Numbered from the whole stretch's first letter, positions 17,671-60,791 are shown. The stretch is 63,627 bases of DNA, filler included, from Perkinsus chesapeaki ATCC PRA-425 (GCA_013115145.1; 9 parts of 9 records of this genome joined end to end with filler, not necessarily neighbours in it); one strand, 5' to 3'. Numbers and translations are program-made. The notes: generated from the letters alone by a model not told the origin.

Positions 17671-17692
17671 TACCCATCATGGGTAACTCATG
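17671..17692. other. Putative hairpin-excision scar, 1 mismatch (8-mer TACCCATG)
   Basis: tacccat-catgggta-actcatg; expected right arm is acccatg. Confidence 0.7.
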
Positions 17693-18565
17693 GTCTGCCG
17701 TTCGCAGGTTGTGCGACTTAGGTAACATTTCATTCCTAACTGTGTCGTCCAGTAAACGATATTTACTCAAATAGTTGATAATCACCTTGAAGACGGCTCT
17801 GAGCACTCGATTTACACTCACTCTCTTTTACACATAAATTTTGTATATTTAGCTGATACGATAGCTATCAAGCTCGCTATCGTTTCCGGGGAAGTTGTAA
17901 GATGATAGTGAATGTATTAAGCCCTTCAGCTGACAGCTGCCCAGAGGCTTTTGTTTCTTCCCGACCACCAATCTGCTGGCAGGCTTGGACTTTAACTTCG
18001 TTGCTCTGCGGCCTATAATATCCACCTTCTCTTGTAGGGGATTGATAGTTTCTGGAGGAATTCATGGAAAATGAGAGATTGGCGGTCGCTGTGGCCGAGT
18101 TGACCTATTGTCCATTATGTTCTTTGAGGGAGCCAATACTGGTAGCCTTCCCGTCTCAACTCGGGTCTATGTCATGAGCGATTGAAAATATACGTTGATA
18201 GAAAATCTTGTGTGTGTGTGCGAGTTAGTCCGACGCCAAAAAGTTTAGACGTCCATTTTAGTTAGAAGTTAAAAGTTTAGTTGGACCATCCATTTTATGT
18301 GCAACTGCCGGGAGAGTTTAATTCCTGTACTGTTCTGTCATTGTATGGTTCGCCCCGAAAGCCTTCATTGGTCATCGCGGTGAGCACCATATACTAAGAC
18401 AACTTATTATGTGACATTATGTGAGAGAGCGTTGCTGCGGCACGACTCCTTGCGGGTTTTGCTTCGCGACGGAGCTATGGTATGGGGCTCCAGGGCCGTT
18501 TAACTCAACACTGCCCGAGGCCTGATGGATAAAAGCCCCTCAAGTGAATGTAGTAATAATAATGA

Positions 18566-18587
18566 CCGAGTACTGCTCGGCGAGCAG
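18566..18587. other. Putative hairpin-excision scar, 1 mismatch (8-mer CCGAGCAG)
   Basis: ccgagta-ctgctcgg-cgagcag; expected left arm is ccgagca. Confidence 0.7.
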
Positions 18588-20954
18588 CCAGAACAATGAA
18601 AATTATAAGTACGAAGCACTAGAGCATCATAATTAGTGTCAAAAATCATCATCATACCCAATTTGTGTTACAGGAATCGATCACATACGTAAAACAAAGT
18701 TTGTGATGTTAATGTTCCTACACGGAACCACTATAAATGACCAGCAAGAAATCTGATGCTGATATTGAAGACAAGACGCCAACAGTCATATAAGCTGACT
18801 AGGCAATAGTCATAATAATAAGTAATAGAAAATTTGTTCTCACCCCATTCCGAAATGTCACTGTTGGAATGATAAGACAAGAGGCTGTATTACAGCCAAA
18901 ACACACGACTGAGGAGCCTCAGCACCACATAGTCCACAGCAAGCAGCATAGATGCATAAATGGACCACTGAGTAAGAAGCACGTATGCATGTTTCAGAAG
19001 TGGTGTTGCAAGAGTGGTATTGCGAGCGTGGCGCAAGTTTTATGCTACAACCCTGACCTTGAACCTATAGCCGAATGAACCAATCTTTGCGGAGTACATG
19101 CAGTAATGCTCACTCAAAGTCACGGTGTGCGTATCCAAGCCTGCCCTCTCAGCGCAACTGTCTGTGAATAAACAAACAACTTCCTGAACAAACGTTGCAC
19201 TGCCCCAAGAAGTATGGCACGGCACAGGCCCACAGGCCCACAAATTAGACCAATCTGCGTCTGGAAGCTCAAGTCTATGTAGTATGAAGAATCTGTCTCT
19301 ATCTCCTTAGGCACAACCATTCGTATAGATCCTTCACGATTCCTTACACTATATTCCCCTTCATACACCCCAGCACCCAGGTGACATAGTGAACACCCAA
19401 TAGTGCAAGATGTTAAAGCCCATATAGTCAACCATATCGCAAGTCTTGTGCAAGTTACTATGAAGCATACTTTTAGGGGGTACTTGATCTTCTCGTAGCC
19501 ATCGATATACTCGTTAGAAGAAGTAAGAGAATGAGTCATCAATGAAGATTATGAAGGCCTAACGAGATCATAGATCAAGCCGGTCTGCACATGAAGTGTC
19601 ACACAACTATTCATGAACAACGAAGGCAGATGGCAGATCATTAGCGCCTACACAGCTAGATAGCCTATGAGGTACCACCGAAGGCGACTCACCCCCTCGG
19701 CTGCGGGGCGATGTAATCCTTGCAAACTTATGTTGCACGCTTTAGTCCACGCTTTATTTTTCGGACTCCTTGGGGGCAACTCGAACTATCTGCTACCACA
19801 TCGCCCTCTTTTATTCCCATCCTATATATCGTCCGTCATCTTCCTCCTCAGCATTCCACTACAGCAAGTGCTTCGTTCTAAAAAAATGAGAAGTTCACAT
19901 GTCATGTCACGGTCACGTTGGCAGTGACGCTTACAACCTCGGGATGGCTACTTTGCTCCGAAACGAATTCCGCGGGATTTCCGCGTATATGATAATCACA
20001 TGTTTCTGTAGGTCTGAAGAGGGTCTGTAGAGGTAGAAGAGCTCCCTTCGGAAAGGACCTTATATCATTAGCGGTTCACAAGGGTTCGTAGTATCAAATA
20101 ATAAACATATCCACCCACTGCGGACATCCGAGGACATATCTTATCTTACTTCCTCACTTTGCGTCCGAAGTTGTGCTCCGCTTAGCTTTGGGTCTGATGT
20201 TGGGCTCGTCTTCCTTGTCCACATAGATAGGTCTCACGACACAAAGAGAGCACGATCGCCTTATACGTTTGAGTGCCAACTGATAGCCGCGATTGACCAA
20301 CAGGTAGTTGGCAAGATTTCCGCTGTTCCATGCCGGAGTTGCTACGTGCTTGACTTTATCATTTCGCAGTTGGATACAAGTTCCTCCACATTTCAACTGT
20401 TACGAATCTTGGTACGTAGCAAGTCTTCCCTCAAAGGAAGAAAGCAGGCGTTTTTCGCTCTCCACGAGATATAGTGTTGCTTGGAGAGCGGGTAGTCGTT
20501 AGCCGACACTTGTAAATTATCTCAAAGCAGAAGACTTTCCAACATTAGACTGCCATCGTGGGCGATACTACTTCTGGTTGCAATACTCTATCAGTAGCGT
20601 CCGTTGTCGACTACACTTCCGCTCATAGCACTTACTGTGATCCCTCATACGTTGGAACAAGAGGATGCCAGATTTCTGTATTGGCTCCACGCGCGTAAAC
20701 GGTATATAGCGGCAACTGTCCTCTTGTGACGGCTAACTGTCCAATTGACCTTCTTGTCCGTGCAATCTGCTCTGTAATATTACGAATCACAAACGCAACA
20801 AGCGCATTTTGAAGTGCGCGGACTTCGCGCTGAACTGCTTAGCTAAGCGAATCTTGTCGCGTTCTTCAGGTCTGCAAGTCCTCTCGCTTCACTCAGTAAC
20901 TCAATGACAGCTTTGGGAAGAAACGTTGTAAGATGACAGTGAACGTATTTGTCG

Positions 20955-26220: not shown

Positions 26221-26305
26221 TCACGTTTAGAAGTTTTTCGTGCAACTCATCTGGGAGCTGAGTTTTGTGGCGCAGTGACTTTTAGGTTTTATCTTTGTAT
26301 TTGAT

Positions 26306-27299: not shown

Positions 27300-27555
27300 G
27301 CAAACACTGTGGTGACTTCAGTACTCTATATCATCGTCATCATCATCGGACGTATGTTCGTTGACCATCTTTAAATACCAAACCTTCACTGAAGGTGGAT
27401 GACGTTTCTATGAGATGGCAGTTGAAGGAGCAGCGCTGCTGGTGACAGTTGCTGCATTCTTTATTGTTACCTCAAACTGTAGTTTATCGGTTTTGTAGGC
27501 GCCAGTTGGTTATGAGTCTTTGAGTTTTAGTGCCTCTAATTGTCTTTATATTATT

Positions 27556-27702
27556 TATTACCATACTTCATCTTATTCATTACTATACTTTTCCTTATTT
27601 ATTGACATACTTTACCTTATTCATTACCATACTTTACCTTATTCATTACCATACTTTACCTTATTCATTACCATACTTTACCTTATTCATTACCATACTT
27701 TA
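27556..27702. repeat. 22-bp AT-rich minisatellite (CATTACCATACTTTACCTTATT)n running into an N gap
   Basis: At least 4 near-exact units plus degenerate units are visible. Confidence 0.9.
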
Positions 27703-33998: not shown

Positions 33999-34099
33999 GN
34001 NNNNNNNNNNNNNNNNNNNNNNNNNNNNNNNNNNNNNNNNNNNTTAATTAATTAANNNNNNNNNNNNNNNNNNNNNNNNNNNNNNNNNNNNNNNNNNNN

Positions 34100-39600: not shown

Positions 39601-39776
39601 GTAATAGCTGTAAGAATCAGAGCGGACAATGCTGGTGGAGCAATGTGTTCCGAACACAACAAAGTGAGCTGGGTGTAACAACATTCCACTTTAACAGCTT
39701 TACCGCCTGATGACCTGTATGTCGATCATGATACTTAATGAAAAAAGTAAAAGGCGTTGTTTGTTGTGGCGAAGCC

Positions 39777-40470
39777 TTATGCTGCGAATTTTCTTAAGCG
39801 ACGCCGTTTACGGCAGGTAGAGTCGTTGGTTGCAGAAGTAGTATTGTTGGGTTTATCAGACATCTGCTTGGTGTAAGTAGTGTCAGTGTCGCCGCGAGTA
39901 GTAGATACACATTCCTTAGTGACAATAGGAGTGTCAATAGTGGTTCCGTCGGAGATAAGCTTAGTGTCACTGCTGTGACTGTCGTGGAGAGAAGTAGATG
40001 AACAGTCGTTGGTGCCAGCAGAGGTGGTACTATTGGTTGCGTGAGACGTAAGTTTAGTGGCAGTATTGTCAGTCTCGTCGAGGTAGTACGCCTGAGTGAA
40101 GCATAATAAGCAAAGGAAAAGGGAGACTACTTTTTCCTCTGGGGACATAGAGTCGAGGAATTCATCAGAGCAGCTGTCACAGATTTTTAATATTTTATTG
40201 TCGTAATAAGCCTGAAAGGAAAACGATGAGGGAAGGTGAAAATCCTTTTCAAAAAAGGCCGGCTTTACCATCTCCTGGGGCGTGGTGAGGAAGGTATCAG
40301 TACACTCGTCACAGACACGTAGACTTTTGTTGTCGTCTTCTTCGTGCGGCATCATACAAACAGGGCAATGATCGCAGGGAGAAGTTGAGCGTAGACGACT
40401 GGTTGGAAGAGTAGTAGGATTGGCTGCAGTGTCTTCAATGTCAGCAGGAATAATGTTGCTGGTAGACATA
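39777..40470 (-). CDS. Hypothetical Cys-motif, Thr-rich protein ending in a basic NLS-like tail; a degenerate paralog lies at about 41288-41940
   Basis: CDHCPVCMMPH...LDSMSPEE...CRKRRRLRKFAA versus YCPSCMLPH...SMSPEE...RRNKRRRLLC, which is frameshifted. Confidence 0.45.
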
Positions 40471-40964: not shown

Positions 40965-40986
40965 ACTACCTCAGGTAGTCTACCTG
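40965..40986. other. Perfect hairpin-excision scar (8-mer ACTACCTG)
   Basis: actacct-caggtagt-ctacctg; a paralogous unscarred site gagctgagta-actacctg lies at 40846-40863. Confidence 0.9.
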
Positions 40987-43995: not shown

Positions 43996-46308
43996 TTATC
44001 CCCCATACCCAGCGTTGATGCACGATCGTAGTTGATCCGATACCTCAACCTCAAACCAACCATGCGGCACCTCCCCCACAATATCCTTACGGTCACTCCT
44101 GCTCAGTTTATCTGCCACTGTGTTATACCGGCCAGGAATAAAGCAGCTAGATACTCTGCCCGCCCATGAGGACAACCAACCCAATACATTCCTCATCGCC
44201 TCTGTCTTCGAAGTCCATCTCCGTATCACGCTCGACACCGCCCGATTATCCGAAAAACACCTGACTCGTACCCTTGATGGGTCCCTCACTCCCAGTAGCC
44301 TCTCCACCGCTAATATGCCACATGCTGCCGCTATAGCCTCTATAAAGCAAATGTCTCCCGATACTGCCCGCTCAGCCACTTCCGATGGAGCATACTGGTC
44401 CAGACCGCTATGCTGGTGTTGGTACCCGCCCCATTTCCTCTTCAGCAGCAAGAGTTCCTTCTATAACTGCGGGTAGTCTGATCTAGATATCGAGAACCAG
44501 GCTTGCGTGCTCTCATCTGGTCCTACTACCAACCCTCCAATGCCATGCAGACAACCATCCGTCACTATTGACCATTGCGATTCTACCATCAAAGCTGGCT
44601 CCATTACCAACGGGCGTGACAATATATCGTAGAAATACATCATATCTTGCTCCAGCGCCCCTCCTATAGTTCTCTTCCTGAGCTCCAATTTATTCGTCAT
44701 CGCAAGCGCTGCATACAAACTCGCTAATCTAGGTTTATGCTCCACCACTAATTGGCAAGCAAAATTTAACCTGCCTAGCAGAACCTCCAGATCCGCCCGT
44801 GTAATGGATCCCCCTCTTCTAGCGTCCTGAATCATGGAGCGTATCATATCCCGCTTCTGCTTAGGTAAAGCTATTGACCCTTTCTGCGCTTCCCAATCTA
44901 AACCCAGGTCATACCCCAGGAACTCAACCAAGGATGCCGATATAGTAATCTTCGAGTACTCCAGATCCATCCCAAACGCCAAAGGCAAAAGCAGCAGGCT
45001 TATCACCTCTGCTACCGAACCTGCCCACCAGAGGCTGTCGTCGATATAGCAGAGGCCACCCCCTTTTCCACTTCTACTGCCTACCAAGTGATATTGAGCC
45101 CTGTGCACCCCCGAATTATACCTCGAGAAGATGAGGCATGATGAAGACAGCCCGAAGGGTAGAGAAATGTCCCATAAAACTTGGCCCAATGGTCTCGGGT
45201 CCGTCACCGCCGTGTTCTTTCGTTCACACTCCCGCAGGTCTATCAGCCTATAAGCTCCCTTAATATCATATTTAAGCATGAAACCCAACGGACTCTCCCC
45301 CCGTACCTCCTGACCAGTAGCTGTTGCGCAGTCTGTCACGAACTGTGCTACTTCTTTCAACCTCGGCAGTGCAACCGTAGTTCCCATACACACTTCTTTA
45401 TTTACTCCTCACCGTCTAAAGTCGCTTATCATACGGACTTTGGTCTTCTCTTTATTCTTCCAAATCGCCTTCAAACTCGTGATGACTTTGGCCCCCCTGT
45501 TTCGCGCCTCATCGAAAGATATAGCCTCCATCCGATGATGCTCAATCTCCTCTTGGATTTTTTCTTCCCCCAGAGTAGCCAGCTCTTCTTTCAACTGGTA
45601 GGATACTAGGGGCTCCCCATCCCACAAAACCATCTCATCCGGTTCACCGCGTCGTCTTGGCTTCTCTACAAAGGCCGGCCATACCTGAGGATTCTCCGCC
45701 ATGCACGGGATCGAGACCCCTGCCTGAGCTCCCCCCATCACATTGAGTGGGCCCGCCAGATCCTCCACTCCCTGTTCAGGGGCTGTACACCTCAAGACTG
45801 CTTCCAACAATCTACCTCTCAGCGGAGACCTCTCCGTTGCATTTTGCAACAGAGTCGCGGCTGAACCATATCCACGCTCCTGCAGAATCAATGCCAGTTC
45901 TCCCGAGAGTTTACTACCCGCCTCTTTGATGTCGTAACTATCCCATAAGTGAGCGGCGGCACCCTGATCTTTGCCATCCAACTTCACGAACGATTCCATG
46001 AAGGCCGTAGCCCCTGGCTGGCCCAACCAGTCCTGCGCAGCCCGCGTCACTGCCATCGACAGCCATTCCGTCGTTTCAGGGTCCGTCGCCTTTTCAAACG
46101 AATAACTCTCCTCGGCCCAGTGACCCATATGAGGAAGACCACTACCATCCATCAAAGTGACCTTTTCTTCAAGACATCCCTGTACTTGCTTCACATGTGC
46201 ATCCCAGGTCTCCGATGGGATGAATCTGTCCCAATAACTTTCTGCCCCGCCTTCTCTACTGGCGTTGCTCGTCGATGACGCTCCCTCCGTGGGAGATTCT
46301 CTTTCCAT
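43996..46308 (-). pseudogene. pol (RT plus RNase H) in one reading frame, interrupted by two in-frame stops (TGA 45409-11, TAG 44461-63)
   Basis: KVRMISDFRR*GVN, YDIKGAYR, LPFGLSSS, YIDD; RNase H VTDG, IEAIAA, SDN, NTVADKLSR. The three track ORFs are in the same frame. Confidence 0.9.
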
Positions 46309-46638
46309 GCACCTCGCCCTCTTAGAGGCCCTAAACGAGCTCTTCCCCTGCGTCTACCCGCCAAGGATCTGACTCTCTTCGGAATCGTGGAAGTCGCACG
46401 AGTTCTTCCACCGAAAACACGGAGGGAAGGGGGACAAATTAACTGAAAATGAGCCCCTGAGGTCGTGACTGACGCAGAACACTGCTAACCCAAGAACAAA
46501 GGCTCTACCTCTTGAAAAACATATCTTAAAAAAAGTAGGAAACGGTGGGCTCGCTATCACCCAACAGGTAGCCAAAACCCTTAGTAGGGGGCCCCTACTC
46601 CCTAAGCCCTACTTCCACATAGCCGACTTAGACCGACA

Positions 46639-47691
46639 CTACTTCTTCTCAGCGCGCTCTCGAGCGTGCTTACCCGAGTGGCGCGACGGCGGGAAAAAAA
46701 CAAATGCCTTTAGCCAGGTAAGGGCATTCGCTCTTATTGAATTTACATACCCCCTCCTTCTTAGGAAGCCAAGCCTTGCCGTTCTTGGGACCAAACCGCC
46801 CGCCTTGGGGGCCTTCGTTCCGAGACGGAGAAACCGGCCCCCCTCCCCCGCCACTTCTTAAAGCAGACAGCGCAACCAGGTCACCACTCGCCAGCGTCTC
46901 CACATTAGATAAACATATAATTACCGCCTCAGGATAGCTGCAGTTGTCATCTTGGGCTCTCTTGTGAGCCAGCACTGCCAACCTCTTGCGAGAGGCCACA
47001 TCAAAACTTAGGGCCGCCGCCTCTCCCAAGGACATAGTGATCTTAGCCAAGAAAACAACGTATTCCAAGGAAGACGCCCCGCGCCGGGCCGAGCACACCA
47101 CCTCCACAGCCGCCAACCACGGACCCAGCAACGTCAGGAGCTCCGACATGCTTCTCGGATCCCGAGTCTTCACTCTCCTTCTCAATAACATGTCGACGAC
47201 TCCGTCAGCTGACTCCTCCTCGCCCGTGGCCTCTTGACCAATCTCCTCTACCGGAAATTCCGGTCCGGAATCCTCAAGGGCCTGTACAAACCGGGGTCCT
47301 GCACCACTGCTGGTAACATAGACCCGTCCCCCACCAAGTTAGACGATATAGGGGCACCAGAACGCTCCTCAGCGCGTGAAAGATAATCAGCCCGCAGCTG
47401 CGGCGGGGGTAGTTTCTTTCCCATCAGAGCCTCCGACACATTCTTCAGCTCACTGCGGACCCGCTTGAGCGCCATAGCCCTTTCCACCGCCTCAGCGTCA
47501 CCCTGACCTTCCGGGAAGTATTTGCCGTTAAACGCCTTCATGAGGGTCTCATTGTCCAGCACATTCGAGACATCAGTGAGCTTCTCGGCACCTATCAGCA
47601 TCAAAGCATCCACCGCCCTTGAAGCCATAACCTCCGAGCAATCAGCAGATGCATACTCCCGGAAAGATTCGGGGGTCAGGTCGCCGGGCAT
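46639..47691 (-). pseudogene. gag-like ORF1 of copy 1 with a C-terminal CCCH-like motif; two frameshifts relative to copy 2
   Basis: A 14-nt insertion at 47250-47271 and a T7 versus T6 run near 46700 break the frame that is intact in 60953-61990. Confidence 0.88.
47250..47271. other. Perfect hairpin-excision scar (8-mer ACCGGAAT) frameshifting gag
   Basis: accggaa-attccggt-ccggaat; copy 2 has the single 8-mer (attccggt at 61373-61380). Confidence 0.93.
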
Positions 47692-49111
47692 CAATGGGGA
47701 AATAACTTTATAACAAGAGGCTAAGAACAACTAACCCTTTCAAGTAACTGCACCGCCCCTACGACGGCTCCAAGAGCGTAAACCCAAACGCGCTACATCC
47801 CAAGGACAACTGGCAAACATCGCCTAGCCACCGTAGCTGAACTACCGCACAAGACTCAGCTCGCACACAAACCTTGTCCCCCAGACACACTTCGCTACCG
47901 GAAAACTCACCCGAAGGCCCCCACGCCCTCAACACACTCTCCACTAAGCACACATCACAGGCAGGTAAGTAAAACCCGAGGTAACGAGATCAGCGCTCCA
48001 AGACGCGTTCCCAAGAGCCCAGGATAAGCTACCCCCAATGTATGCCATCTCTACTGGAGATCACACTGCGCGGCGCATATATTAACACGCCCCCGGCGGA
48101 GTAAACCCCCCACGCCCCCTCATAGAAGGTCTAGCATCGGCCCTGCCGGGATCAGCGCTCTAAGACGCGTTCCCTGGCTTGTCCTGGAACTAAGAGAAAC
48201 CCTCTCACCCTCCGCCCTAAGGCGAAAACAAATACTTGAACACAAATCCTTGGCCCCTACCGGGAAACCCACAAACCGCGACCCGCACAGAGATCAGCGC
48301 TCACATACGCGTTCTCATGTGGGGATGCCTGTCGCTGGACCCCTAGCCCACCTAACTCGCCCTGTTATGCATCTGTGCATCCACCGCCAGCCCTGAGTCA
48401 GCGCTCTAGACGCGTCTCGAAGACCAACAACAAACCCCCCAACCCTGCTGGGGTAACCAACCTGTTAGGCCCGGCCGGGCCTAACATGCACTCTCTGCTA
48501 AATAACGAATACACGGAGGGTGTCTGGCATTGAAGGGAAAACAATTACAAAGGCGCCTGACAAGAACCCCCCCCAAAAAAAATAAAATCTTGAAGTCATA
48601 TCCATATAATCTAACTCCATATCCGACAAATCCTGTCGTACTGATCCTACGGCCTCNNNNNNNNNNNNNNNNNNNNNNNNNNNNNNNNNNNNNNNNNNNN
48701 TTAATTAATTAANNNNNNNNNNNNNNNNNNNNNNNNNNNNNNNNNNNNNNNNNNNNTTATAGCTACAGCACCCACAGAAATATAGCTAATCGCTTTCCTG
48801 CAATGTGCACGAACCCTAATGAGGAAACAAAAGATTAATAATGCGCTGATATAAGCCTCTACATACTTAGTAATACTTAGTATCATCCGGATCATCATAT
48901 AAACTTAAAACTAATATGAAGTTGTGTTAGGGAGTGATATCATAATAGAGGGGTATTCCTCTACACTACTAGTAAGACTCCATGGAAATCGTTCACATGC
49001 CGTACTGAGGTAGACAATGGAGACGGAACTAAAGGTAGGATATCTTTCTAACCAACATCACTATCGATGTACCGGAAATCTCAGCCTGATAACGAGGTCG
49101 ACTCATAATTC

Positions 49112-50201
49112 TTAGCGAGACTTGTACTCGGCAATGCTAACAGTTTCCAACTCTAAATCGAAAGAAGAAAAATAAGTTGTGAAGAAAGGGCGACCAAGAA
49201 TAACTGCAGACCCACCGTATTCGCGGAATGCAAGCTTACACCATTGGCCATCACAAAAGAGTGCGTATTTATTAGGTGGGATACGTACGATGAAATGTTG
49301 CTTACTTCCGACAGTAAATGTTAAAGCTGGGAAGTTGCTATACCCCTTGTCCGTGATATTCCAGCCATGATTGTAGGCTTCAACGTGCACCCCAGGCCCT
49401 GCGAAATACGAGATCTTGTTCAGGAGACTCTCAGATATACTCTTCGGGGCAAAGATTGAGCCAGAACCCGTATCGTACATAACAGATCTTTTTCCGGCTT
49501 CAGGGTTGAACCTTCTCCCTGTAGGGCTCACAAGACCATAAGAGCGTAGATCTGAATCCAAGGAAATAGCTTTATGGGGTTGAGTCATCGGAATAACGGT
49601 AACCCCCGCCTTGATTGCACACAACCCATTCCAATCACCAAATATTAGAGTACCGGTAAACGACTCCACATCACTAGGCGAACATATCGACACTGCGTAC
49701 TTCTTGATCATCTTCTTAAGGTAAAGCTGCTTCGAGCAGTAGCGTTTGAGGGCTGGCAGTCGAACCGAAGGCGAGGCCAAGCATATTCATTACCGTGTCA
49801 CCCTTCACTTCTGAGCCAGGAGAGAAGCCTATAATCAGACGAAATTGCATATCCAGATTTTTCCCCGCAGGAGAAAGCGTTCCTTCGTGCAGGACTGACG
49901 TTACCGCGGAGCCATCGTCAAACCTTGTAACATGCTTCTCTTTAGCATAAGGATCGCAACCACTGGGGCAGGAGTAGCAGCCCATTTGAAATTGCTTGCA
50001 GGCATCCTTCCCGTAGGTTCTTTCATACCAATCCTTGTACACAACGTAAGTTCCACTAAGACCAGTATCAATTGCCAGTTGGAGCGGTTGTCCGTCGAAC
50101 ATGACATGACTGACAATACCGTCCTTAAAAGGCCAAGATATCTCGCCACGTGCCATAAGATACCAGGAGGTAAGAACGATCCCAATGAATAAGTAGATCA
50201 T
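49112..50201 (-). pseudogene. Secreted pepsin-like aspartic protease with one frameshift near 49735 (pseudogene or sequencing error)
   Basis: LAIDTG in ORF 49716..50201; MYDTGS and ILGRPFF..Y.S.FD in ORF 49112..49780. The junction PQTLL / QLYLKK aligns with VIEQLYDKK in the 15526 paralog. Confidence 0.85.
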
Positions 50202-50316
50202 GTTATTTAAACTACAAAGCTAAATCCCTTGATGCGTATATACCTATCAGTCGCACACGTGCACTTACTTGAGAATCAATTTGATTCAGTCAAACTCTGA
50301 ACCCGTGGCGCGGAGC

Positions 50317-50338
50317 AGCTCCAGTGGAGCCGCTCCAC
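50317..50338. other. Putative hairpin-excision scar, 1 mismatch, with an extra inverted half-unit upstream
   Basis: cggagc-a-gctcca-g-tggagc-c-gctcca-c. Confidence 0.65.
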
Positions 50339-50621
50339 CAATTCGGTGTGGTCATTAACATGTGTTAGCACTAGTGGACCACTAGGCTGTCCTTGGGGAG
50401 TTAACGAGTCATGTTCATATTGAACGCAGGTGTAAACTATGAACACAGTAACGACAAGGCAAAAAAGGAAACTAACACATCATACTTTAGGGAATAACCA
50501 GGCCACAGACCAACAAGAGGANNNNNNNNNNNNNNNNNNNNNNNNNNNNNNNNNNNNNNNNNNNNTTAATTAATTAANNNNNNNNNNNNNNNNNNNNNNN
50601 NNNNNNNNNNNNNNNNNNNNN

Positions 50622-51136
50622 GCATTCCCGTTCGCCTTCACGATAGCGGTAGCGCTCGGGTTAACCCCATCGGAAATACGACCAATCTCGGGAATTCTTG
50701 TGGAAACTGTCAAATTGGTTGGAAAATTGATCTCCCATCCACCTTTTACTGCACGACCCAGCTCCTCCGAGAAAGGAGGAATGTAGAGAATAACGGTACA
50801 TAAAATACCCCCGGTGAGCTTCAGGTCATAAGCAGTATATCCTTGAGCCCAGACACCAACTTGGACAGGACGTCCTCCTTTTAAAATAGCACTTATCTCC
50901 AACGAGGCGAAGTTTGGAAGGTTAGTGGCGTTCGCCAGCAACCTCATACCACCATTCACTTGATGGTTATTCCGCAAGATATACCAACAGTAAGGACCAT
51001 AAGTTTTTTTTGCATATAAGCAATTATGCGGTTGAGTTGCGACCACCGGAATATTGAGAGCCCTGCTACCGTCTCCAAAGCACACTTGAGCCATAAACAG
51101 CAGAAGACCGATACAGGGTGATAACAAGGATGACAT
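50622..51136 (-). CDS. Hypothetical secreted protein, 3' truncated by the gap
   Basis: MSSLLSPCIGLLLFMAQVCFG signal-peptide-like start; open frame up to the gap. Confidence 0.6.
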
Positions 51137-51599
51137 TGAAATGAATATATGTCGTTGGAAAGCTAAAAGCAGTGAAGAAAGCTACCCATGGAGGAGGTAT
51201 AAAGGCTATCGAATGTTGAAACCAGAGATTAACTCTTCCGTACCATCGCCTCGCAGAAGATGAGGCCCGAATGATATACTGCTGGGTATAGCGAAACAGC
51301 AATGGACTCCGAGCAGTGTGCACTCGGCCTAAGATCGGATGAAGACACGATATCCTTTTTAGGCCTCTGATTCGGAGGTGTCGCCAGCTAGCTATAACGA
51401 TATCGATCGAGGCGTGGCGCCATACCAACGAAAAGGCGCCATTGAGGATGCCTTCTTCTACAAGGAGCCATTGATGAGGTAGCCCCTAATCTTTCTCGAA
51501 AAGCTTCTGGTCGCTCGAAGGCTATGTAGCTTGCATTGCCGGCCATTCACGATGCATGACTAGGACCAAATAAGATTTATTAAACTAAAATGCACTGAC

Positions 51600-51621
51600 G
51601 CTGGAGGCTCCAGCCTGGAGC
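51600..51621. other. Perfect hairpin-excision scar (8-mer GCTGGAGC)
   Basis: gctggag-gctccagc-ctggagc. Confidence 0.88.
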
Positions 51622-53007
51622 CACCTGTGCGTCCGCATTCCATCTGTGGATGCTTGCATTCTGACAATGTTCGACTCTGTGCAATGCCCAGAATATGTAG
51701 TAAAGGATCCAAGATCAAGAAGTTAGTCCCACAAGCTTGAGTAGAGTATGTTACGCACTGAAGTGGTGCTTATCGCGTCCTGGTATCTTTAAATTGACTA
51801 TTGCAGTAATAATTGTGTGGAACGAGACAGCACTACTGTCGCTGGATCAGAACTTTGTGTTAAGGTTGTTCCAGTGTGCCCGCATACCCTGCGGAGCCAA
51901 CAGTATTAGCTTGTACAAAATGTAAAACTAAGAACCTTTGCCCGGAGTATTGACCAATGATGAGAGATTTAGCATTAGTACTTGAGATTCTCCAACTTGA
52001 GTGGTATTGAGGTGGCCTCTGAACATAATCGGCGCCACAAACCTCCGGTTACTAGCCTGCACTCAAACGGAGTTGATTAGGTGGCCCTCTGAACTGTGTC
52101 TGCGAGCGAAGTTCTAGTGAACATGCCAACCCACACCGGAAAAGAGGAGTAGGATAAGTAGCAGTACCCCTGAGGGACTCTCTCCGAACCGTCTAATAAG
52201 ATACACTCGAGGGGTCTCGAACACAATTAAATAGAGATCTTGTCATTANNNNNNNNNNNNNNNNNNNNNNNNNNNNNNNNNNNNNNNNNNNNTTAATTAA
52301 TTAANNNNNNNNNNNNNNNNNNNNNNNNNNNNNNNNNNNNNNNNNNNNTCGGGCCGTTTCTCCTAGAGGGGCGGAGCGATGTAAAATATACAGTGACATT
52401 ATCTTCATATGCCCTACACTTGTTTAGGGTTTCTTATTCTTACTATGGATTTATTCTGTGAACAAAGATAGCGCTCAAGTTGTGCAACTCAATTTATTTC
52501 CCCATTGAGTGCATAGCGACGCTGTGATACCGTGTTTACTCAATTATCAAGATCCCCACTCTAAACTGAGATTTGAGATTCGGGCGCTTCTCCCCGAGAA
52601 GTTGGGTGACTCTAAACATCCAAGTGGTTTTTTGCATTCGATTTGCATCCCTCCTTTGTTTATCAGACATTTCTTGATGACCCCAATGGAGCTCCCGGTG
52701 TTCCAACCTTTTAACTGTCCAGCACGGCAACAAGCTACTGGCCGACAACTGTTTTTCTTGCGAGTGGCTACAACAGGCCCCCACATAGGGCCGACGACGA
52801 GTTCAGAATGTAATACCATCAACTTGAAACGTTTATGAATCACAGCTGGCTCTTATGAATCCCAGCTTGACGCTTGCAAGATAAATGGAAGGTCCATACG
52901 CTGTGTATACCCTGGTAGGTGGTCATGCGAGTATTCACGCATTGTCCTCCGCGATCATGTATGTTTGTAGATCTTCGAGTTATATAACTTCTCTGCCATG
53001 AATGCTG

Positions 53008-53029
53008 GTTATTCTGAATAACTTATTCA
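53008..53029. other. Perfect hairpin-excision scar (8-mer GTTATTCA)
   Basis: gttattc-tgaataac-ttattca. Confidence 0.88.
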
Positions 53030-53237
53030 ATGATCACAGCTTTAATCTTTCAAGTTCGCAGTCTGTTGCCCTAGGTTTTGTTGTTCCTTAAGGTGCGGCG
53101 TCTCCAGCTTGTCGGACTGTCCCGCCCGGGCACAGTGATTTGTGTAATACGAATTGTGTTTGGTTGAGATTTGGAAGCTACCAAGCATTCTAATATGTCT
53201 AGCATACATTGAACTCCTAGCTTGTATTGTGACTGCG

Positions 53238-53259
53238 GTGGTGTCACACCACTGGTGTG
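53238..53259. other. Perfect hairpin-excision scar (8-mer GTGGTGTG)
   Basis: gtggtgt-cacaccac-tggtgtg. Confidence 0.85.
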
Positions 53260-53342
53260 CACATGCGGTGCTGACTCTGAGTTACATCGGCCACACACGC
53301 CCCTTTTCAGTTTTGCTTACGACCTACATGCGCCATTCTCAC

Positions 53343-53376
53343 ATGTTCACTGAACATGTCAATGAACATTGTTCAG
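53343..53376. other. Compound hairpin-excision scar (8-mer ATGTTCAG) with a 12-nt templated insert
   Basis: atgttca-ctgaacat-[gtcaatgaacat]-tgttcag. Confidence 0.7.
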
Positions 53377-54466
53377 GCTTCTATCAGTTTCTCGCTGCTT
53401 ACAAATGTCTGGCCGAAACTGGCGCTGTACGCACGGAGGATCGGGGAATCGTGTACAAGGTAACTACGCCATTTTTATTTCTGGGATGTTTTGAACATCC
53501 TATTCAGCGTTGTTAAAATGAAATGTTTCTCTTCAGATATCCTAGCACTGCATACATAGTGTGAAGCGTGGTCTTTCATGATGTGCTCAGACCATTGCTC
53601 ACCCGTGAAGATTATTCTCACCAGTCTGACCTGGGTCTGCTGACACGTGGCAGTGTTATGACTGGCTTTCAAAGAGACCGCTTGCAGAATTTCGACTGGC
53701 TAAAACTGCATCGCGATCTTCCCTCACTGGCTGAGGCTCAGGCTCACTCTTGCCATGGTTGACTTGTTCGACTTCCAACTTGCTCAACTATAGTGTACGC
53801 TTAGCACTTCAAGCTCAAACGGTTAATGTTCTTGTCGCATGATATTCATCACTTGAGCTATTGTGCTCCTAGCGACGGCGCGACAGCGTTTCGTGTAGCT
53901 CTAGCTCACTCACGTATTAATCTCACCGCGCTTAGCATTCTACACTGTGCGGTGTATTCTTGAGGGAGTTGTTTCGAGTTTTTCACAATATGTTGAGGAA
54001 GTTAGGTGTGGATGGCTGAACCTCAATTGTTTTGTGCATTACGCACCCTATGAATTTAACTTCGCTCGCCCGAGTATCTTTGTGCGTGTATACGTGCAAT
54101 AAGATTTGTGTTTGTTGATCGATTATGTTTGTGCTTGCGTACCCCCGTTTCAAGTTCAAATGTTCCAAAAAAGAATTTGGGCTGCGCTATGTGATCTCTT
54201 GTTGTTAGCTTTTATCCATTTAATGCCGATAGCCCCACATCAATCCTTGTAGTTCCCTATCGAAGCAGCGCTGCTTACGGTATTATGGTCTTTATCATCT
54301 GGGCATTTCTTCTCCTGGCGTTTGACGTTGGTGACGGGCTGTCGCCATCGTGGCGCTCTCATATCTCTGCTCGGTACTTCAACTATTACTCATGTGTAAG
54401 TACGCAATTCAGTTCATGCTTTTTGAAACAAATTAAATGCATGCTTGCAGGTTCCTATTCTCGCTC

Positions 54467-57330
54467 TTACATCATATCTCTCAAGATTACAAGCGACCTG
54501 AGGCGGTGTGGAGTGAGCCTTCTACGGCGATTCCTTGCTATGTTGGTTGCCACCGAGAAACAAGATTCTGAAGATATTGACGTCGTTGGCACCGAACCAA
54601 GTATTAGCGCAAGTCTTTGTACTTCGCCGAGGTCTGCTGCTGCCTGCCAGAATTGAGTGTATTTGCAAGGCTCTCTAAGAGGCCCTTTGTAAGTATCCTC
54701 TAAAGTGCGCGCTCTCGTCTCGTAGATGCCTAGTTGGGCTCTTAGTCTAGCGGTCTTGTCCTCATCGTCGCCGACTCTAGCAATAGGCTGTTTTCTACGG
54801 GCTCTGGTAGCAAAGCTGGCAAACACGTCGTCTTCTTCTTCGTCCGCATGCTCGATATCAGTATTTTCTTCCTCTTCAGGCATATCTTCGTCCCAATTCA
54901 TATCATTTATGCATTTTATCACTGCCTCCCGTCCTTCTTCGTCAGTGACCTTAGCATATTGGGGGTAGGTCACGTTTCTGGTTTCAGGGAGCAAATAGTT
55001 CCCTGCACGTACCCATTTGTTAGTCTTTGTGTATTGAAAATACTTCTCCACTTCAGGTACCAGCAGCTTTTGGAGGTTTTGATAGAAACAAGTTTCATTA
55101 TCACGGTTGATCGAGTCGTCTTGAAGGAAGGACTTGAGGAAGCCGACGACGGAGTACAGCCGTGGAAGGGTCGGATAATGAGTAGCAGCCAGGTATTTAC
55201 AAGCTTCCGAGAATGGTCTTAAGACCTTCACTATATCACGCATACTATAGTAGTCCTTAGGTTCGAACGCATACTCCAACACGGTGTCGAAGATTTGGCC
55301 ATTAATTTTGGAGTTTTTGATCTTGGACTGAAAAGCGTCGAAAGACAGTTCGTTCTTGAGAACATTCTCAACCATTGCCAAGGTACTGTTCCATCTTGTA
55401 GGTGTATCGATCATGTAGTTCATATTAGGTTTGCCAACTTCAGGCAGCTCGCCTCTGACATCCTCCATGAGTTTGGCCGCCTTGCCGGAGACTCTCAACA
55501 TTGTCAGCATCTTTCTGCATTTGGTCAAGACATTGTGAATCCTATGCTGATTACGAGAAGTCTTCTTCGCTTCTAAGCCGTCAAGCCAAGCTGCATCATC
55601 TTCGGGTGACCACTCGTCGTCCGGTTCACTGCCCTCCTGGTCACTGTAGACAGCATCATGGTGGTTAGCATTCTCGTCATCATCTCTGTCTTGGTTCTGG
55701 TTGTTGCCAGGGGTATCCTCTCGGTTGTTATTCTGGTCGACTTCGGGAGCATTCTCTTTGTGGACGGCACCAACGAATAGTTTCAGAGCATTCGAAACAG
55801 CCAGATGGAGTCGGTGCCCAGCGCAGGGTAACCAGCATACCATATTGTTGAGGCGATACCTTCGGTCAAGATCAGGCTCGGCGTCATTGAGGTCTGCTTT
55901 GTCCTTGTCTTCGGCTTTCCGGCTGCCAAGTAGAAGTTTCGTGGCAGCTCGACGTATGTCTGACCCTGAGTCTGTTACAACGAAGGCTACCTGAGAGGAA
56001 ACTAGTCCTGCCAGTAGTGGCAGTAGTGTCATCTTGCCTTATCAACTATCTCCATCTTCAACAGAGTTTTGTAAATGACGTCAGCCAGGTTAACCGCTGT
56101 GTGGTCCTCTGTGATTTCCTCAAGCCCGATTATCGTCGACTTCATTACCGTCTTGGTTGGTTGTTCTTGATCCTCTGGGCAATGGTGTACGACGACGCCC
56201 ATCACGCTTTGGTTGGATTTTCTTTGCCATGAATCGGCTGTGATGGAAACAACACTCTGCTTCTGTAAAATATTTTTGGCATTCTCTATGCGGTCTTGAA
56301 GTTGGTCATCAAGAAGTCTGAATGAGTGCAAATTCAGGTGGTTTACACCTGCTCGTATTCTACCTCCCAATTTGTCTCCGACTTGGTATTTTGTAGTCCT
56401 TTCCTCCTCTGCTTGCTGTCAAGTACTTCACCAGGGCCACGAATCCTTGGCGATCGACAGTGCATAGAGGAAGTCCGTCGAGTACAATCTATGCAAAGCT
56501 TAATTCAACCCTTATCATACAGAGTCTCTTACCATTTGAACTATCAAATCAGTTATTTTTTTGAAATCCCCGTCTGTTAGAAATTTCTGCATGAAAGTGG
56601 GCTTCTGTGCAGCTGCGGCTGGCTGGGTGGCCTTCTTGTAGCAAGGGTGGGTCTTCAGACTGCTATACCCTTTGTTGAGCGAGAGCCTCTTTTTGCATTT
56701 GAGGCATACGGCATTTTTGCCGTCATTTTCCTTCCGAAAATATGTGTTGAACTTGTCAAATCCATCACAGTGTTCACTGTTTCCCTCTGCATATCGGAAT
56801 GCTAGTGTACATCTATCTGTATCTTACTTTTTGGGTTTTTAGCCTTCGGGCTTGAGTTCACTGTGTCTGGCGATGTTGCGCCACCCGACTCTGGTTCTTC
56901 TCGGCAACGCTTTGTTATTGGTGTTCCTGCAACAGTCTCCTTCATCTTTTTCCTATTTTGAGTTCCGCCGAGTCCGGGGGGTAAACCAGGAGTCGAACCT
57001 GAACAAATCTTATAATGTTACAGTCCCAAACTCATCACGCGAGAGAAATCCAGTGCAACGACGAAGTAAGTGGAGTATATACCATATACTATCTCACGTT
57101 GGATTCCCGGAGTTGGTGAGAGATTCTCTAGTCTGATAATTGGCCACTTAGGGGATTTGTCGACACCTAAAGCAAATATTGTTCCCGGTGATATGCGTTT
57201 CCCCGAGTCATTCACGTGGTCAATGACCACTGACCGTTGGCGACCATATCTTCCTACTCAGCTCAGCGGGCCCTGATAATTCAGATGAGGACGCGGATGA
57301 GGACGAGGATGAGGACGAGGAGGAGAACAT
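54467..57330 (-). mobile_element. hAT-superfamily transposase gene with spliceosomal introns; start at 57330 inferred; TIRs not located
   Basis: BED-like CLKC...H.C finger (about 56640-56720); D.LP..V...GF and YKIPSR; ITADSW (D), VVTDSG (D), CAGH (CxxH), TRWNS, SSESCFS (E); C-terminal dimerisation-like segment. Confidence 0.93.
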
Positions 57331-57343
57331 TCAACGTTCGAAA

Positions 57344-57365
57344 CTAGGAATTTCCTAGTAGGAAA
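57344..57365. other. Perfect hairpin-excision scar (8-mer CTAGGAAA) just upstream of the inferred hAT start codon
   Basis: ctaggaa-tttcctag-taggaaa. Confidence 0.88.
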
Positions 57366-58174
57366 TGATTCAATCACCGTGATTGAAATGCATTCCAGTT
57401 TTCTCAATATGGGGATAGTCCGTGGAGTTTAAGAAGTGGCCTATATGTGACGCGCGAAATATGAAACGGTTGGAGTTAGTGCCTCCAACTTAGTGCTTTT
57501 AAAGTCGCGACCGGTAATCCCATTGCGATTATCCCAACTTCAGGCAGGGCAGGTGCCTTTAGTAAGGGGCCTTCACACAGAGTTGCACTGACCCAGAGAG
57601 TCAAGTTGGTTGCAAGCCGGGGCCGAGTCAAATGAAACGGCTGGTTGCAATAGCGCTCGTCCTGTCACGCGTTCTCTTAACACCGAGTGTTTTGATCTAC
57701 CCAGACAGAATAATGCTCCGTGGAGGAGTGATCGGGGCTTATAGGACGTAGTTTGCCGAAGGATGTGAGATAAGGTTCCTTGGCCATGGTATTTCCGATC
57801 CTTTTTCGCAAGTAGGCCAGAACACAAAATACCGCTGAGCCGATGGAGCCAGCCTACACATAAACCTCTCCCATAAAATTGGTGGATGCACTTGTCCCGA
57901 GACTGAGCGCATATCACATAAGAGTAACTGTATAATACAGTCCTTACTAGAAGGATTCCGAGTAGCAGCTACTTAGCGTAGCAGTAAATATGATTCCGCA
58001 TACACGGAGGCGTTTCTGAGACAAAAGTACTAACGAAATACTCGGCACAGGAGATAAAACGGTTTGGGAGAGAGTAATCGGACTTGGCAAAGGATGACCA
58101 TATTCGGATTACTCTTTCGATTGAGCAATTGTCCAGGTCTCAACAAGTGGGACTGTGACTCTTCCTAGGGAGGG

Positions 58175-60113
58175 GGCTTCGAGGGAGAACGCGTAGAATA
58201 TGATTTAATGTGTGCGCGGTGACATTGATCGCAAAGAGGTGTATCTTAACTTGTTCACCAGGAAAGACTAGCCCGACTTGAACACAACTCTGATAAGACT
58301 GTGCCTTGCATGAACTCGAATAGGCAGCCAGAGATGGAAAAGTAGCATATTACATGCTATAGTGCGTGCAGGAGGGACTTTGAGGGAAATAGCGCGATGC
58401 GGGCTCTAGTGTCTGCGTGGTGACACCGATCACAGAGATAACTTGTTCACCAGGCAAAACTGGAGTGACTTCAACGCAACTCTGATACGACTGTGCCTTG
58501 TGGACTCGAATTCGTGGCTAAACTTCCAGGGAAATAACGTAGGTAACTAGTGCGACACGTGCTCTTCTGCCTGAGCAGTGGCATCGATCGCAGAAAGGTG
58601 CACTCTAGTTTGTTCGCCAGTGAAGGCAAGAGCGACTTGAACACAATTATGATAAAACTGTGCCTTGTAGAAACTCGAATAGGTAGCCAAAGGTGGAAAA
58701 GTGGCATAGCACGTGCTCTGATGCATGCGCAAAAGGCTTCGAGGGAGAACGCGTAGAATATGATTTAATGTGTGCGCGGTGACATTGATCGCAAAGAGGT
58801 GTATCTTAACTTGTTCACCAGGAAAGACTAGCCCGACTTGAACACAACTCTGATAAGACTGTGCCTTGCATGAACTCGAATAGGCAGCCAGAGATGGAAA
58901 AGTAGCATATTACATGCTATAGTGCGTGCAGGAGGGACTTTGAGGGAAATAGCGCGATGCGTGCTCTAGTGTCTGCGTGGTGACACCGATCACAGAGATA
59001 ACTTGTTCACCAGGCAAAACTGGAGTGACTTCAACGCAACTCTGATACGACTGTGCCTTGTGGACTCGAATTTGTGGCTAAACTTCCAGGGAAATAACGT
59101 AGGTAACTAGTGCGACACGTGCTCTTCTGCCTGAGCAGTGGCACCGATCGCAGAAAGGTGCACTCTAGTTTGTTCGCCAGTGAAGGCAAGAGCGACTTGA
59201 ACACAATTATGATAAAACTGTGCCTTGTAGAAACTCGAATAGGTAGCCAAAGGTGGAAAAGTGGCATAGCACGTGCTCTGATGCATGCGCAAAAGGCTTC
59301 GAGGGAGAACGCGTAGAATATGATTTAATATGTGCGCGGTGACATTGATCGCAAAGAGGTGTATCTTAACTTGTTGACCAGGAAAGACTAGGCCTACTTG
59401 AACGCAACCCTGATAAGGCTGTGCCTTGCATGAACTCGAATAGACAGCCAAAGATGGAAAAGTAGCATAGTACATGCTATAATGCGTGCAGGAGGGACTT
59501 TCAGGGAAATAGCGCGGTGCGTGCTCTCATGTCTGCGCGGTGACACTGATCACAGAGATAACTTGTTCACCAGGCAAAACTGGAGTGACTTCAACGCAAC
59601 TCTGATACGACTGTGCCTTGTGGACTCGAATTCGTGGCTAAACTTCCAGGGAAATAACGTAGGGAACTAGTGCGACACGTGCTCTACTGCGTGCGCAGTG
59701 GCACCGATCGCAGAAAGGTGCACTCTAGTTTGTTCGCCAGTGAAGGCAAGAGCGACTTGAACACAATTATGACAAAACTGTGCCTTGTAGAAACTCGAAT
59801 AGGTAGCCAAAGGTGGAAAAGTGGCATAGCACGTGCTCTGATGCATGCGCAAAAGGCTTCGAGGGAGAACGCGTAGAATATGATCTAATATGTGCGTGGT
59901 GACATTGATCGCAAAGAGGTGTATCTTATCTTGTCGACCAGGAAAGACTAGGCCTACTTGAACACAACCCTGATAAGGTTGTGCCTTGCATGAGCTCGAA
60001 TAGACAGCCAAAGATGGAAAAGTAGCATAGCACATGCTACAATGCGTGCAGGAGGGACTTTCAGGGAAATAGCGCGGTGCGTGCTCTCATGTCTGCGCGG
60101 TGACACTGATCAC
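58175..60113. repeat. 560-bp higher-order tandem repeat (~3.5 copies, runs into gap) built from 201+158+201-bp diverged monomers
   Basis: The anchor ggcttcgagggagaacgcgtag recurs at 58175, 58735, 59295 and 59855. An internal monomer core (ttgttc.cca...gactt.aac.caa.t.tgata..actgtgccttg) occurs three times per unit. Confidence 0.95.
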
Positions 60114-60769
60114 NNNNNNNNNNNNNNNNNNNNNNNNNNNNNNNNNNNNNNNNNNNNTTAATTAATTAANNNNNNNNNNNNNNNNNNNNNNNNNNNNNNN
60201 NNNNNNNNNNNNNAGACGCGTCTAGAGCGCTGACTCAGGGCTGGCGGTGGATGCACAGATGCATAACAGGGCGAGTTAGGTGGGCTGGGGGTCCAGCGAC
60301 AGGCTTCCCCACATGAGAACGCGTATGTGAGCGCTGATCTCTGTGCGGGTCGCGGTTTGCGGGTTTCCCGATAGGGGCCAAGGATTTGTGTTCAAGTATT
60401 TGTTTTCGCCGTAGGGCGGAGGGTGAGAGGGTTTCTCTGAGTTCCAGGGCAAGCCAGGGAACGCGTCTTAGAGCGCTGATCCCGGCAGGGCCGATGCTGG
60501 ACTTTCTATGAGGGGGCGCTGGGGGATTTACTCCGCCAGGGGTGTGTTAATATGTGCGCCGCGCAGTGTGATCTCCAGTAGAGATGGCATACATTGGGGG
60601 TAGCTTATCCGGGGCTTTTGGGAACGCGTCTTGGAGCGCTGATCTCGTTACCTCGGGTTTTCACTTACCTGCCTGTGATGTGTGCTTAGTGGAGAGTGTG
60701 TTGAGGGCGTGGGGCCTTCGGGTGAGTTTTCCGGTAGCGAAGTGTGTCTGGGGGACAAGGTTTGTGTGC

Positions 60770-60791
60770 GAGCTGACTCAGCTCAGCTGAG
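60770..60791. other. Perfect hairpin-excision scar (8-mer GAGCTGAG)
   Basis: gagctga-ctcagctc-agctgag; copy 1 has the single 8-mer (ctcagctc at 47855-47862). Confidence 0.93.

Follow-up and report, generated by a model that had tools for sequence, protein, structure and literature searches.

What kind of event leaves a DNA sequence written forward, then in mirror image, then forward again, always in a unit of eight bases? The question is raised by a window (the whole stretch analysed, 63,627 nt including filler) that joins nine records of Perkinsus chesapeaki ATCC PRA-425, which may not be neighbours in the genome. Each site, or scar, is 22 nt long and has the structure N1-7/revcomp(N1-8)/N2-8, and the 8-mers of different scars are unrelated to one another.

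A 22-nt pattern with a fixed 8-base unit

A sequence-only reading had reported seven perfect sites (40965, 47250, 51600, 53008, 53238, 57344 and 60770) and three one-mismatch sites (17671, 18566 and 50317); every one of these is present, and a fourth one-mismatch site, at 50273, is added. The scars, to which no strand is assigned, are as follows.

40965..40986: perfect 7+8+7 scar, in a degenerate tandem array adjoining a Helitron-like ORF
47250..47271: perfect scar, retroelement copy 1, frameshifting a gag-like ORF
51600..51621: perfect scar, pattern match
53008..53029: perfect scar, also in contigs from both samples
53238..53259: perfect scar, also in contigs from both samples
57344..57365: perfect scar, overlapping the two-substitution scar at 57364 by 2 bases
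60770..60791: perfect scar, retroelement copy 2
14064..14085: one-substitution scar, absent from the sequence-only list
17671..17692: one-substitution scar, pattern match
18566..18587: one-substitution scar, pattern match
50273..50294: one-substitution scar, absent from the sequence-only list
50317..50338: one-substitution scar, possibly compound, whose palindrome runs on for a further 5 nt to the left
57516..57537: one-substitution scar, absent from the sequence-only list
16754..16775: two-substitution scar, upstream of an aspartyl protease ORF
39637..39658: two-substitution scar; a paralogous unit near 41220 lacks the 14-nt block
40237..40258: two-substitution scar candidate, substitution scoring
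52512..52533: two-substitution scar candidate, substitution scoring
53139..53160: two-substitution scar candidate, substitution scoring
57364..57385: two-substitution scar, substitution scoring

The shuffled control proposed with the sequence-only reading bears the pattern out: the window holds seven perfect and four one-mismatch matches and the shuffles none, the cumulative counts at 0, ≤1 and ≤2 mismatches being 7, 11 and 18, as compared with 0, 0 and 0.4 on average when the sequence was dinucleotide-shuffled locally 30 times. Scoring each site by the fewest substitutions that separate it from an ideal scar yields 7, 6, 7 and 15 sites at 0, 1, 2 and 3 substitutions, vs. 0, 0, 0.75 and 5.1 in 12 shuffles, a decay series that corresponds to about 29 real sites in 62.7 kb (observed minus shuffle, 0-3 substitutions). 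Site 46577/62031 (2-3 substitutions) was excluded from the count of 19 scars because it is present in both paralogues, and the 15 three-substitution sites were excluded from tests of position because about 5 are expected by chance.

The comparison with other unit lengths, likewise proposed beforehand, singles out one class: across k=3-12, scanned at several trims, the only combination to stand out is k=8 with a loss of one base per side, with seven perfect matches for trim class (1,1) and none for each of (0,0), (1,0), (0,1) and (2,2). Three apparent exceptions were rejected, as eight of the nine matches in a k=4 excess are assembly gap linker, a (10,3,3) match is scar 57344 itself, and an (8,1,2) match is a CAG/CTG run at 24915. 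The palindromes end at the edge of the 8-mer, 19 of 26 ends having no extension, which is the chance rate. We conclude that the 22-nt pattern is confirmed as a real observation.

Direction of change and distribution of scars

Two copies of one retroelement segment provide the substrate that polarises the scars.

46221..48417, minus strand: copy 1 of the 5' segment of a DIRS-like retroelement
60214..62410, plus strand: same segment, copy 2, 95% identical to copy 1
61373..61380, minus strand: empty single 8-mer, paralogue of scar 47250 (copy comparison)
47855..47862, plus strand: empty single 8-mer, paralogue of scar 60770 (copy comparison)

"DIRS-like" and "gag-like" are labels given here from domain order; copy 1 has a tyrosine recombinase ORF at 42802-43833 and a weak reverse-transcriptase match at 44461-45408. 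The 2.2-kb, 95%-identical pair differs by 10 indels, just two of which exceed 1 nt, and both of these are 14 nt long and are scars, one in each copy. At scar 47250 the reading frame changes between 47266 and 47257 (tblastn), and the gag-like ORF, broken by the scar in copy 1, runs uninterrupted for 378 codons in copy 2. Within the window as a whole, the 14 bases are missing from a paralogous copy at 4 of 23 scar sites tested, two of the cases being clean and reciprocal and the other two coming from diverged paralogues with 61-65% identity; for scar 40965, a diverged array unit near 38900 lacks 9+5 = 14 nt. The other 19 of the 23 sites have no empty paralogue in the window (46577, and 18 that returned nothing above the score cut). 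Because two cases are clean and reciprocal, and one scar interrupts a reading frame left open in the other copy, the comparison indicates that the scar is the derived state and that the 22-base sites are 14-base insertions made from one pre-existing 8-base word. The net gain of 14 nt claimed in the sequence-only reading thus holds against empty paralogous sites, and its description of the scars as a frameshift mutagen is exemplified by scar 47250.

Contigs were compared from four runs (two samples, two studies), either sample of which may be the source of this DNA. Scars 53008, 53238 and 57344 are matched without differences in the contigs of all four runs, and across region 52349-58150 the aligned contigs, which lose rare variants, contain no empty or filled scar allele. 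When metagenome contigs were scanned with the gag-like ORF, 65 matches to the pattern came up, none of them a confirmed relative.

Scars occur at a density of about one per 2 kb. Long open ORFs make up 17.9 kb, and none of the 19 scars falls within them (P about 0.002), a distribution for which selection against scars in ORFs may be responsible. Ten of the 19 lie in the 5.2 kb, of 44.9 kb non-coding, near a hAT transposase gene (p=2e-5, the region having been picked post hoc). T occurs at position 2 of the 8-mer in 13 of 38 cases (p=0.17), so that the Hermes-type nTnnnnAn target motif is not evident; position 3 is a T in 16 of the 38 (p=0.02, position picked post hoc).

Candidate agent and proposed route of excision

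The gene near the cluster is the following.

54470..56996, minus strand: spliced gene for a hAT transposase of 780 aa (partial NCBI model)

The product matches Hermes (E 1e-6) and retains D211, D280, CxxH, W473 and an aligned E748, so that its catalytic motifs, with residue roles as in Hermes, are intact. It has relatives throughout Perkinsus: of the best 10 examined, nine are named proteins of that genus, five of the nine from P. chesapeaki. Neither TIRs nor a TSD were found for the gene, including in a relaxed search around it, which returned chance-level matches, and its interior contains no scar. It is present at background depth in all four runs and, having no recognisable ends, may be immobile. 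A search of the whole window for TIRs with a TSD (k=4-10, at most 2 mismatches in 14, a separation of up to 20 kb) returned only pairs from the inverted retroelement copies and chance pairs, and nowhere in the window was a scar's 8-mer seen as the TSD of a TIR-bearing, filled allele. Since no element-filled allele was seen, we infer the scar-making agent, and regard the window's hAT as a candidate for the family responsible. For the hAT origin inferred in the sequence-only reading, a hAT transposase family is present, and the search for a filled allele, bounded by TIRs and an 8-bp TSD, found none. A repeat of about 50 copies ending at 52418 was considered as the agent and put aside, since its flanks seem to have T as their second base, which most scars do not, although this reading is indirect.

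We propose, with a probability of roughly 0.8, that the scars are hAT-type excision footprints in which the ends were joined through the complementarity that the TSD gives to opened hairpins. hAT elements duplicate an 8-bp target on insertion, and insertion would here have duplicated N1-8. At excision the transposase would nick one base into each flank and then seal a hairpin, so that the left end would read N1-7 and then the base complementary to N8, and the right end would be its mirror image; the geometry is that of the scars, and the hairpin chemistry is suggested by analogy with Ac/Ds and Hermes. A host nuclease would then open the hairpins several bases off the tip, leaving a and b palindromic bases, and it would follow logically that at a+b≥8 the two overhangs either meet end to end or share a+b-8 bases of perfect complementarity. 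Annealing, fill-in and ligation would presumably yield 7+8+7 regardless of a and b, after which scars would decay through point mutation and be purged from working ORFs. Such a funnel would explain uniformity without a special enzyme, needing solely that hairpins be opened far from the tip or that unpaired ends be left unligated. The two openings of exactly 8 nt invoked in the sequence-only reading are not required, and, because any opening with a+b≥8 yields the same product, a scar tells little about where the nuclease cuts.

The table of (a,b) footprints for the window has a+b=8 as its sole clearly filled class. The Ac-type (1,1) class has 0 sites vs. 1.3 expected, and no other TSD-retaining class in the window is above background; small cells include (0,3), with 2 vs. 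0.4, and (4,0), with 1 vs. 0.05. Excesses of tandem duplications of 6 nt (50 vs. 17.6) and 8 nt (7 vs. 2.1) collapse to 18 non-simple loci and 2 loci, respectively, which is background. The heterogeneous spectrum with short P-nucleotide products seen in Ac/Ds hosts was thus not found. The footprint spectrum is a trait of the host and not a defining trait of the element. Uniformity holds among visible scars only, because precise restoration would leave no trace: the earlier claim of uniformity stands to that extent. Neither "one product" nor a dominance of microhomology annealing in repair can be read from one genome, as the same ends can anneal into a traceless single 8-mer.

A background of Ku/Lig4 loss is not supported on evidence from the congener P. 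marinus, which is scored 1/1/1 for Ku70/Ku80/Lig4 in Table S1 of PMC6635534 and is present in the Ku tree files of PMC11936186. A wider proposal is that Perkinsus heals hairpin breaks by a single route, long opening and TSD-guided annealing, despite having Ku and ligase IV, so that nearly every imperfect excision leaves the same +14-nt mark; we advance it tentatively, at a little under even odds.

It is unlikely, though the most probable of the other origins considered, that the agent was not a hAT but another flank-hairpin transposase with an 8-bp duplication (a MULE, or a relative such as Dada) or Merlin. No filled element is seen in the window, Muta1 gives flank hairpins and 8- or 9-bp TSDs (PMC5499845), and Dada families and Merlin-like ORFs are reported from P. 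marinus (PMC3706591 and PMC8101967). However, PMC5499845 puts the Muta1 hairpin at 43+43 nt and precise excision in yeast at >90%, and a hairpin of that form should leave even palindromes with no base lost; perfect matches number 0 in (8,0,0) and in every k=9 class, the 48 ORFs scanned contain no MULE domain match, and Dada has TSDs of 6-7 bp, in small-RNA genes. An artefact of sequencing, amplification or assembly is largely refuted: the assembly is fragmented, with 10 gaps, and the compared runs may be the source of this DNA, but the contigs of all four runs (two samples, two studies) contain the same three scars, the sites decay through up to 3 substitutions, and they avoid open ORFs.

Two further readings dispense with a resident element. 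A replication template switch, or a polymerase-theta-type templated inverted insertion, that copies eight bases backwards and returns would write the product as forward, switch, forward and would need no element, none having been found at the sites; 53343 and 50310/50317 appear to carry an extra turn. We consider this improbable, as a switch should give tracts of variable length and boundaries, yet the unit is a constant 8 bases, each side losing one, other k give no signal, the edges are hard, with end extension no greater than chance, the empty sites have no obvious priming inverted repeat (by eye), and the 8-mers are mutually unrelated. A failed insertion, in which an 8-bp staggered target cut made by the transposase is repaired by fold-back synthesis, would fit the fixed unit of 8 bases and the clustering of scars near the hAT gene (with its post hoc region), and would account for many scars without filled elements in the window. 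It is more improbable still: staggered target cuts are a product of strand transfer of element ends, and failed insertion alone does not predict the loss of exactly one base per side, whereas flank-hairpin chemistry does.

Significance and comparison with known systems

From one genome alone, excisions usually cannot be seen, their footprints being too diverse to pick out. With 14 constraints and an essentially zero chance background, the present signature makes past cut-and-paste events countable, datable by decay and mappable without the element, and makes the original 8-bp target site recoverable from each scar. It also makes testable, in a natural population, the standing question of what determines how transposase- or RAG-type hairpin ends are resolved, and how far TSD-derived microhomology sets the outcome. 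For annotators of Perkinsus, +14-nt frameshifts become recognisable, and scars can serve as homoplasy-poor presence/absence markers. If healing by a single route is true, datable scars would number in the tens of thousands across the genome and would preserve a direct, genome-wide fossil record of the cut-and-paste activity of long-gone elements and of the sites they targeted, besides being a major source of frameshifts. Among the matches listed in literature searches, judged by title and abstract opening, there was no report of this scar from Perkinsus or of 7+8+7 footprints surveyed across a genome; the product may nonetheless stand in figure tables or supplements.

Long inverted TSD duplications at empty donor sites have reportedly been described for Ascot-1 of Ascobolus (Colot et al. 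1998) and Tam3 of Antirrhinum (Yu et al. 2004). These resemble the scars, but their footprints are said to be diverse though non-random, and the exact 7+8+7 product may well be among them. Muta1, a MULE, is similar in its flank hairpins and 8- or 9-bp TSD, but differs in mostly precise excision and in a hairpin without base loss (PMC5499845), whereas the scars have no k=9 or even-palindrome class. Hermes and TcBuster, and V(D)J coding-joint P-nucleotides, parallel the proposed route in that the non-transferred strand is nicked first, a hairpin forms on the flank and the host opens it; the repair reported (PMC6900584 and PMC3499496) is NHEJ with insertions or deletions of a few bases, in contrast to the fixed +14 here. 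Hermes differs also in its nTnnnnAn target preference, which the scars do not evidently share.

A further comparison is with Ac/Ds in Arabidopsis, Saccharomyces cerevisiae and Candida albicans, which shares with the scars an 8-bp unit, palindromic P-nucleotides, microhomology joints and a host-dependent spectrum (PMC5873905 and PMC1978519). In the former paper, the palindromes that make up Ac/Ds footprints have at their centre the base complementary to the one adjoining the element, and joints show microhomology in 85-100% of cases in Arabidopsis and 88-89% in yeast. Published hAT footprints are heterogeneous and mostly short (PMC5873905 and PMC3499496). Ac/Ds gave 28 types in 128 Candida clones, with arms of ≤3 nt, and up to 20 nt in yeast (PMC5873905 and PMC1978519). 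Unlike Ac/Ds, the P. chesapeaki window has a single full-length a+b=8 product above background, present as an endogenous, decaying fossil series.

A 22-nt scar above the chance background

An exact scan of the N-free window for the 22-nt pattern N1-7 + revcomp(N1-8) + N2-8 (a 'scar', named by its start coordinate) recovers all seven perfect and three one-mismatch sites of the sequence-only reading and adds a one-mismatch site, 50273.

Scars in the N-free window
Perfect: 40965, 47250 (sequence ACCGGAAATTCCGGTCCGGAAT), 51600, 53008, 53238, 57344, 60770
One mismatch: 17671, 18566, 50273, 50317

Counts exceed those in shuffled sequence: in 30 local dinucleotide shuffles, perfect and one-mismatch scars both average 0, and at up to two mismatches the window scan finds 18 sites vs. 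a mean of 0.4. Across unit lengths k=3-12 and trims (bases lost per side) from (0,0) to (3,3) in the N-free window, real excess is confined to k=8 and a loss of one base per side, in agreement with the proposed 8-nt peak. The remaining non-zero cells are a gap linker, scar 57344 itself and a CAG/CTG run, and yield no further scar classes. Assembly gaps (e.g. 5712-5723) carry, in 8 of 10, a 12-base all-frame stop linker that mimics a k=4 scar, and a 22-bp minisatellite running into a gap (27544-27702) has the scars' period yet is unrelated. Scoring by fewest substitutions gives 7, 6, 7 and 15 sites at 0, 1, 2 and 3 substitutions vs. 0, 0, 0.75 and 5.1 in 12 shuffles, a decay series that comprises about 29 sites at a density of one per 2 kb. 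Palindrome ends stop at the 8-mer edge in 19 of 26 cases, matching chance expectation.

Scars are derived 14-nt insertions

A DIRS-like retroelement with a tyrosine recombinase, a weak RT match and a gag-like ORF (42802-48417) has an inverted partial second copy at 60214-62410; the RT-region ORFs of copy 1 are split by in-frame stops. The shared 2.2-kb segment is present in two inverted copies with 95% identity, separated by 10 indels, of which eight are single-base and two are exactly 14 nt. Both 14-nt indels coincide with scars: copy 1 carries 47250, copy 2 carries 60770, and each time the opposite copy holds a plain 8-mer. An ORF that runs open over 378 codons in copy 2 is thrown out of frame by scar 47250 in copy 1, which marks the scar as derived. 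We conclude that the scar is a derived +14-nt insertion into a single 8-mer, with the net gain and the frameshifting that had been proposed from sequence. Alignments to diverged array units show a 14-nt gap at scar 39637 and a 9+5 nt gap at scar 40965, weaker evidence given identities of 61-65%; for the remaining 19 of 23 sites tested, no empty paralogue was found in the window. Tandem arrays at 58175-60113 and 37666-39562 have ~560-bp units with internal 201/359-bp substructure; one is young (96-99.5% identical) and one old (about 70%), the old one adjoining a Helitron-like ORF (34044-37007).

The hAT transposase and scar placement

Genes in the window
11418-13481: host gene, kinase with EF hands (CDPK-like)
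15526-16674: host gene, first aspartyl protease gene
49112-50219: host gene, second aspartyl protease gene, in pieces
54470-56038, minus: long hAT ORF with hAT dimerisation domain
54470-56996, minus: hAT transposase gene

The hAT ORF is identical to an NCBI protein named as Perkinsus chesapeaki. The transposase matches Hermes (E 1e-6), retains D211, D280, C329xxH332 and W473, and has E748 aligned within the Hermes C-terminal motif; the residue roles are those known in Hermes. The best 10 relatives looked up include five from P. chesapeaki, two from P. marinus and two from P. olseni, and hAT-like transposases are therefore a genus-wide family. No TIRs or target-site duplication (TSD) of this gene copy were detectable in the window.

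Long open ORFs make up 17.9 kb and contain 0 of the 19 scars with up to two substitutions (P about 0.002; 46577, present in both paralogues, dropped), and 10 of the 19 fall in the non-coding sequence flanking the hAT gene, which totals 5.2 kb (p=2e-5, for a region picked after the fact). The hotspot, 50201-58150, surrounds the intact gene, with no scar inside it, and fits either local hopping or neutrality of the region. No firm target motif is evident among the scar 8-mers. Contigs of one sequencing run, X5, join 52816 to 54809 and 55046 to 56084, reflecting a deletion derivative or second haplotype of the hAT region, possibly a non-autonomous copy. A high-copy repeat end (52349-52418; contig depth ~3400 vs. 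69, roughly 50 copies) stops at 52418; in X5 a different, full-depth sequence precedes 52419, pointing to a polymorphic insertion. An apparent scar with a 12-nt extra fold inside (53343-53376) and three successive palindromes at 50310/50317 (50310-50338) are possible compound or extra-turn scars.

Probable excision footprints and competing explanations

Geometry, the +14 gain, polarity, decay and the avoidance of ORFs are observed, and we consider it probable (about 0.8) that the scars, which are real and well above chance, are hAT-type excision footprints channelled into a single product by the complementarity that the TSD provides. hATs are described as cutting the non-transferred strand first and leaving a hairpin on the flank (PMC6900584), and Ac/Ds footprints as host-dependent palindromes centred on the complement of the element-adjacent base, usually with microhomology (PMC5873905, PMC1978519). 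Excision from an 8-bp TSD would leave a left end reading N1-7 then the complement of N8 onward, mirrored on the right. Hairpins opened to leave a and b palindromic bases would give overhangs overlapping by a+b-8 complementary bases and, by arithmetic only, every case with a+b of at least 8 would fill in to the identical 7+8+7 product; the 8+8 opening originally proposed would be only one of many. Stem-to-stem pairing of the same ends would restore one 8-mer, leaving no visible trace. Since these openings would converge and stem pairing would be invisible, what sets this host apart would be that products of short openings are missing, suggesting either that hairpins are opened at a distance from the tip or that ends must pair before they are ligated.

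Tallying all products N1-7 + a left-hairpin bases + b right-hairpin bases + N2-8, we find a+b=8 to be the sole clearly occupied class (7 vs. 0 expected), and the short Ac-type product (1,1) is seen 0 times vs. 1.3 expected in the window. Tandem-duplication classes are at background after collapsing overlaps and simple repeats. The tally is blind to deletion footprints and precise restorations; the uniformity claimed by the sequence-only reading thus holds among visible footprints. Its Ku70/Ku80/LigIV check, made on records of the congener P. marinus, finds Ku70, Ku80 and Lig4 all scored present (Table S1, PMC6635534); P. marinus is also listed in Ku tree supplements (PMC11936186), and the text seen of a P. 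marinus CRISPR paper has nothing specific on its repair (PMC8062965). Classical NHEJ loss in Perkinsus is not supported.

Another element with flank hairpins and 8-bp TSDs (MULE, Dada), or Merlin, is an improbable source. MULEs likewise form flank hairpins and 8-9-bp TSDs, but the Muta1 hairpin is given as 43+43 nt with >90% of excisions precise (PMC5499845), and the window has no hits of the even-palindrome or k=9 type. Dada and Merlin-like ORFs are reported in P. marinus (PMC3706591, PMC8101967), but Dada, described with a 6-7-bp TSD and RNA-gene targets, fits worse. No element-filled allele with TIRs and 8-bp TSD was found within the window, and a metagenome contig scan with the gag-like ORF found no further copies. 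Template switching with no transposon would leave k=8 and the symmetric one-base loss unfixed, and is very improbable. Sequencing or assembly artefact is unlikely: independent libraries agree, three scars being covered without difference by contigs of 4 of 4 runs from two samples (either of which may be the assembly source), and the decay series is present.

Among the matches listed in a literature search (titles and abstract openings), none describes 7+8+7 as a genome's dominant, endogenous, dense scar, and none reports it for Perkinsus. The footprint class of these putative hAT excision scars is already known, and the exact 7+8+7 product may be among published Ac/Ds, Tam3 or Ascot-1 footprints.
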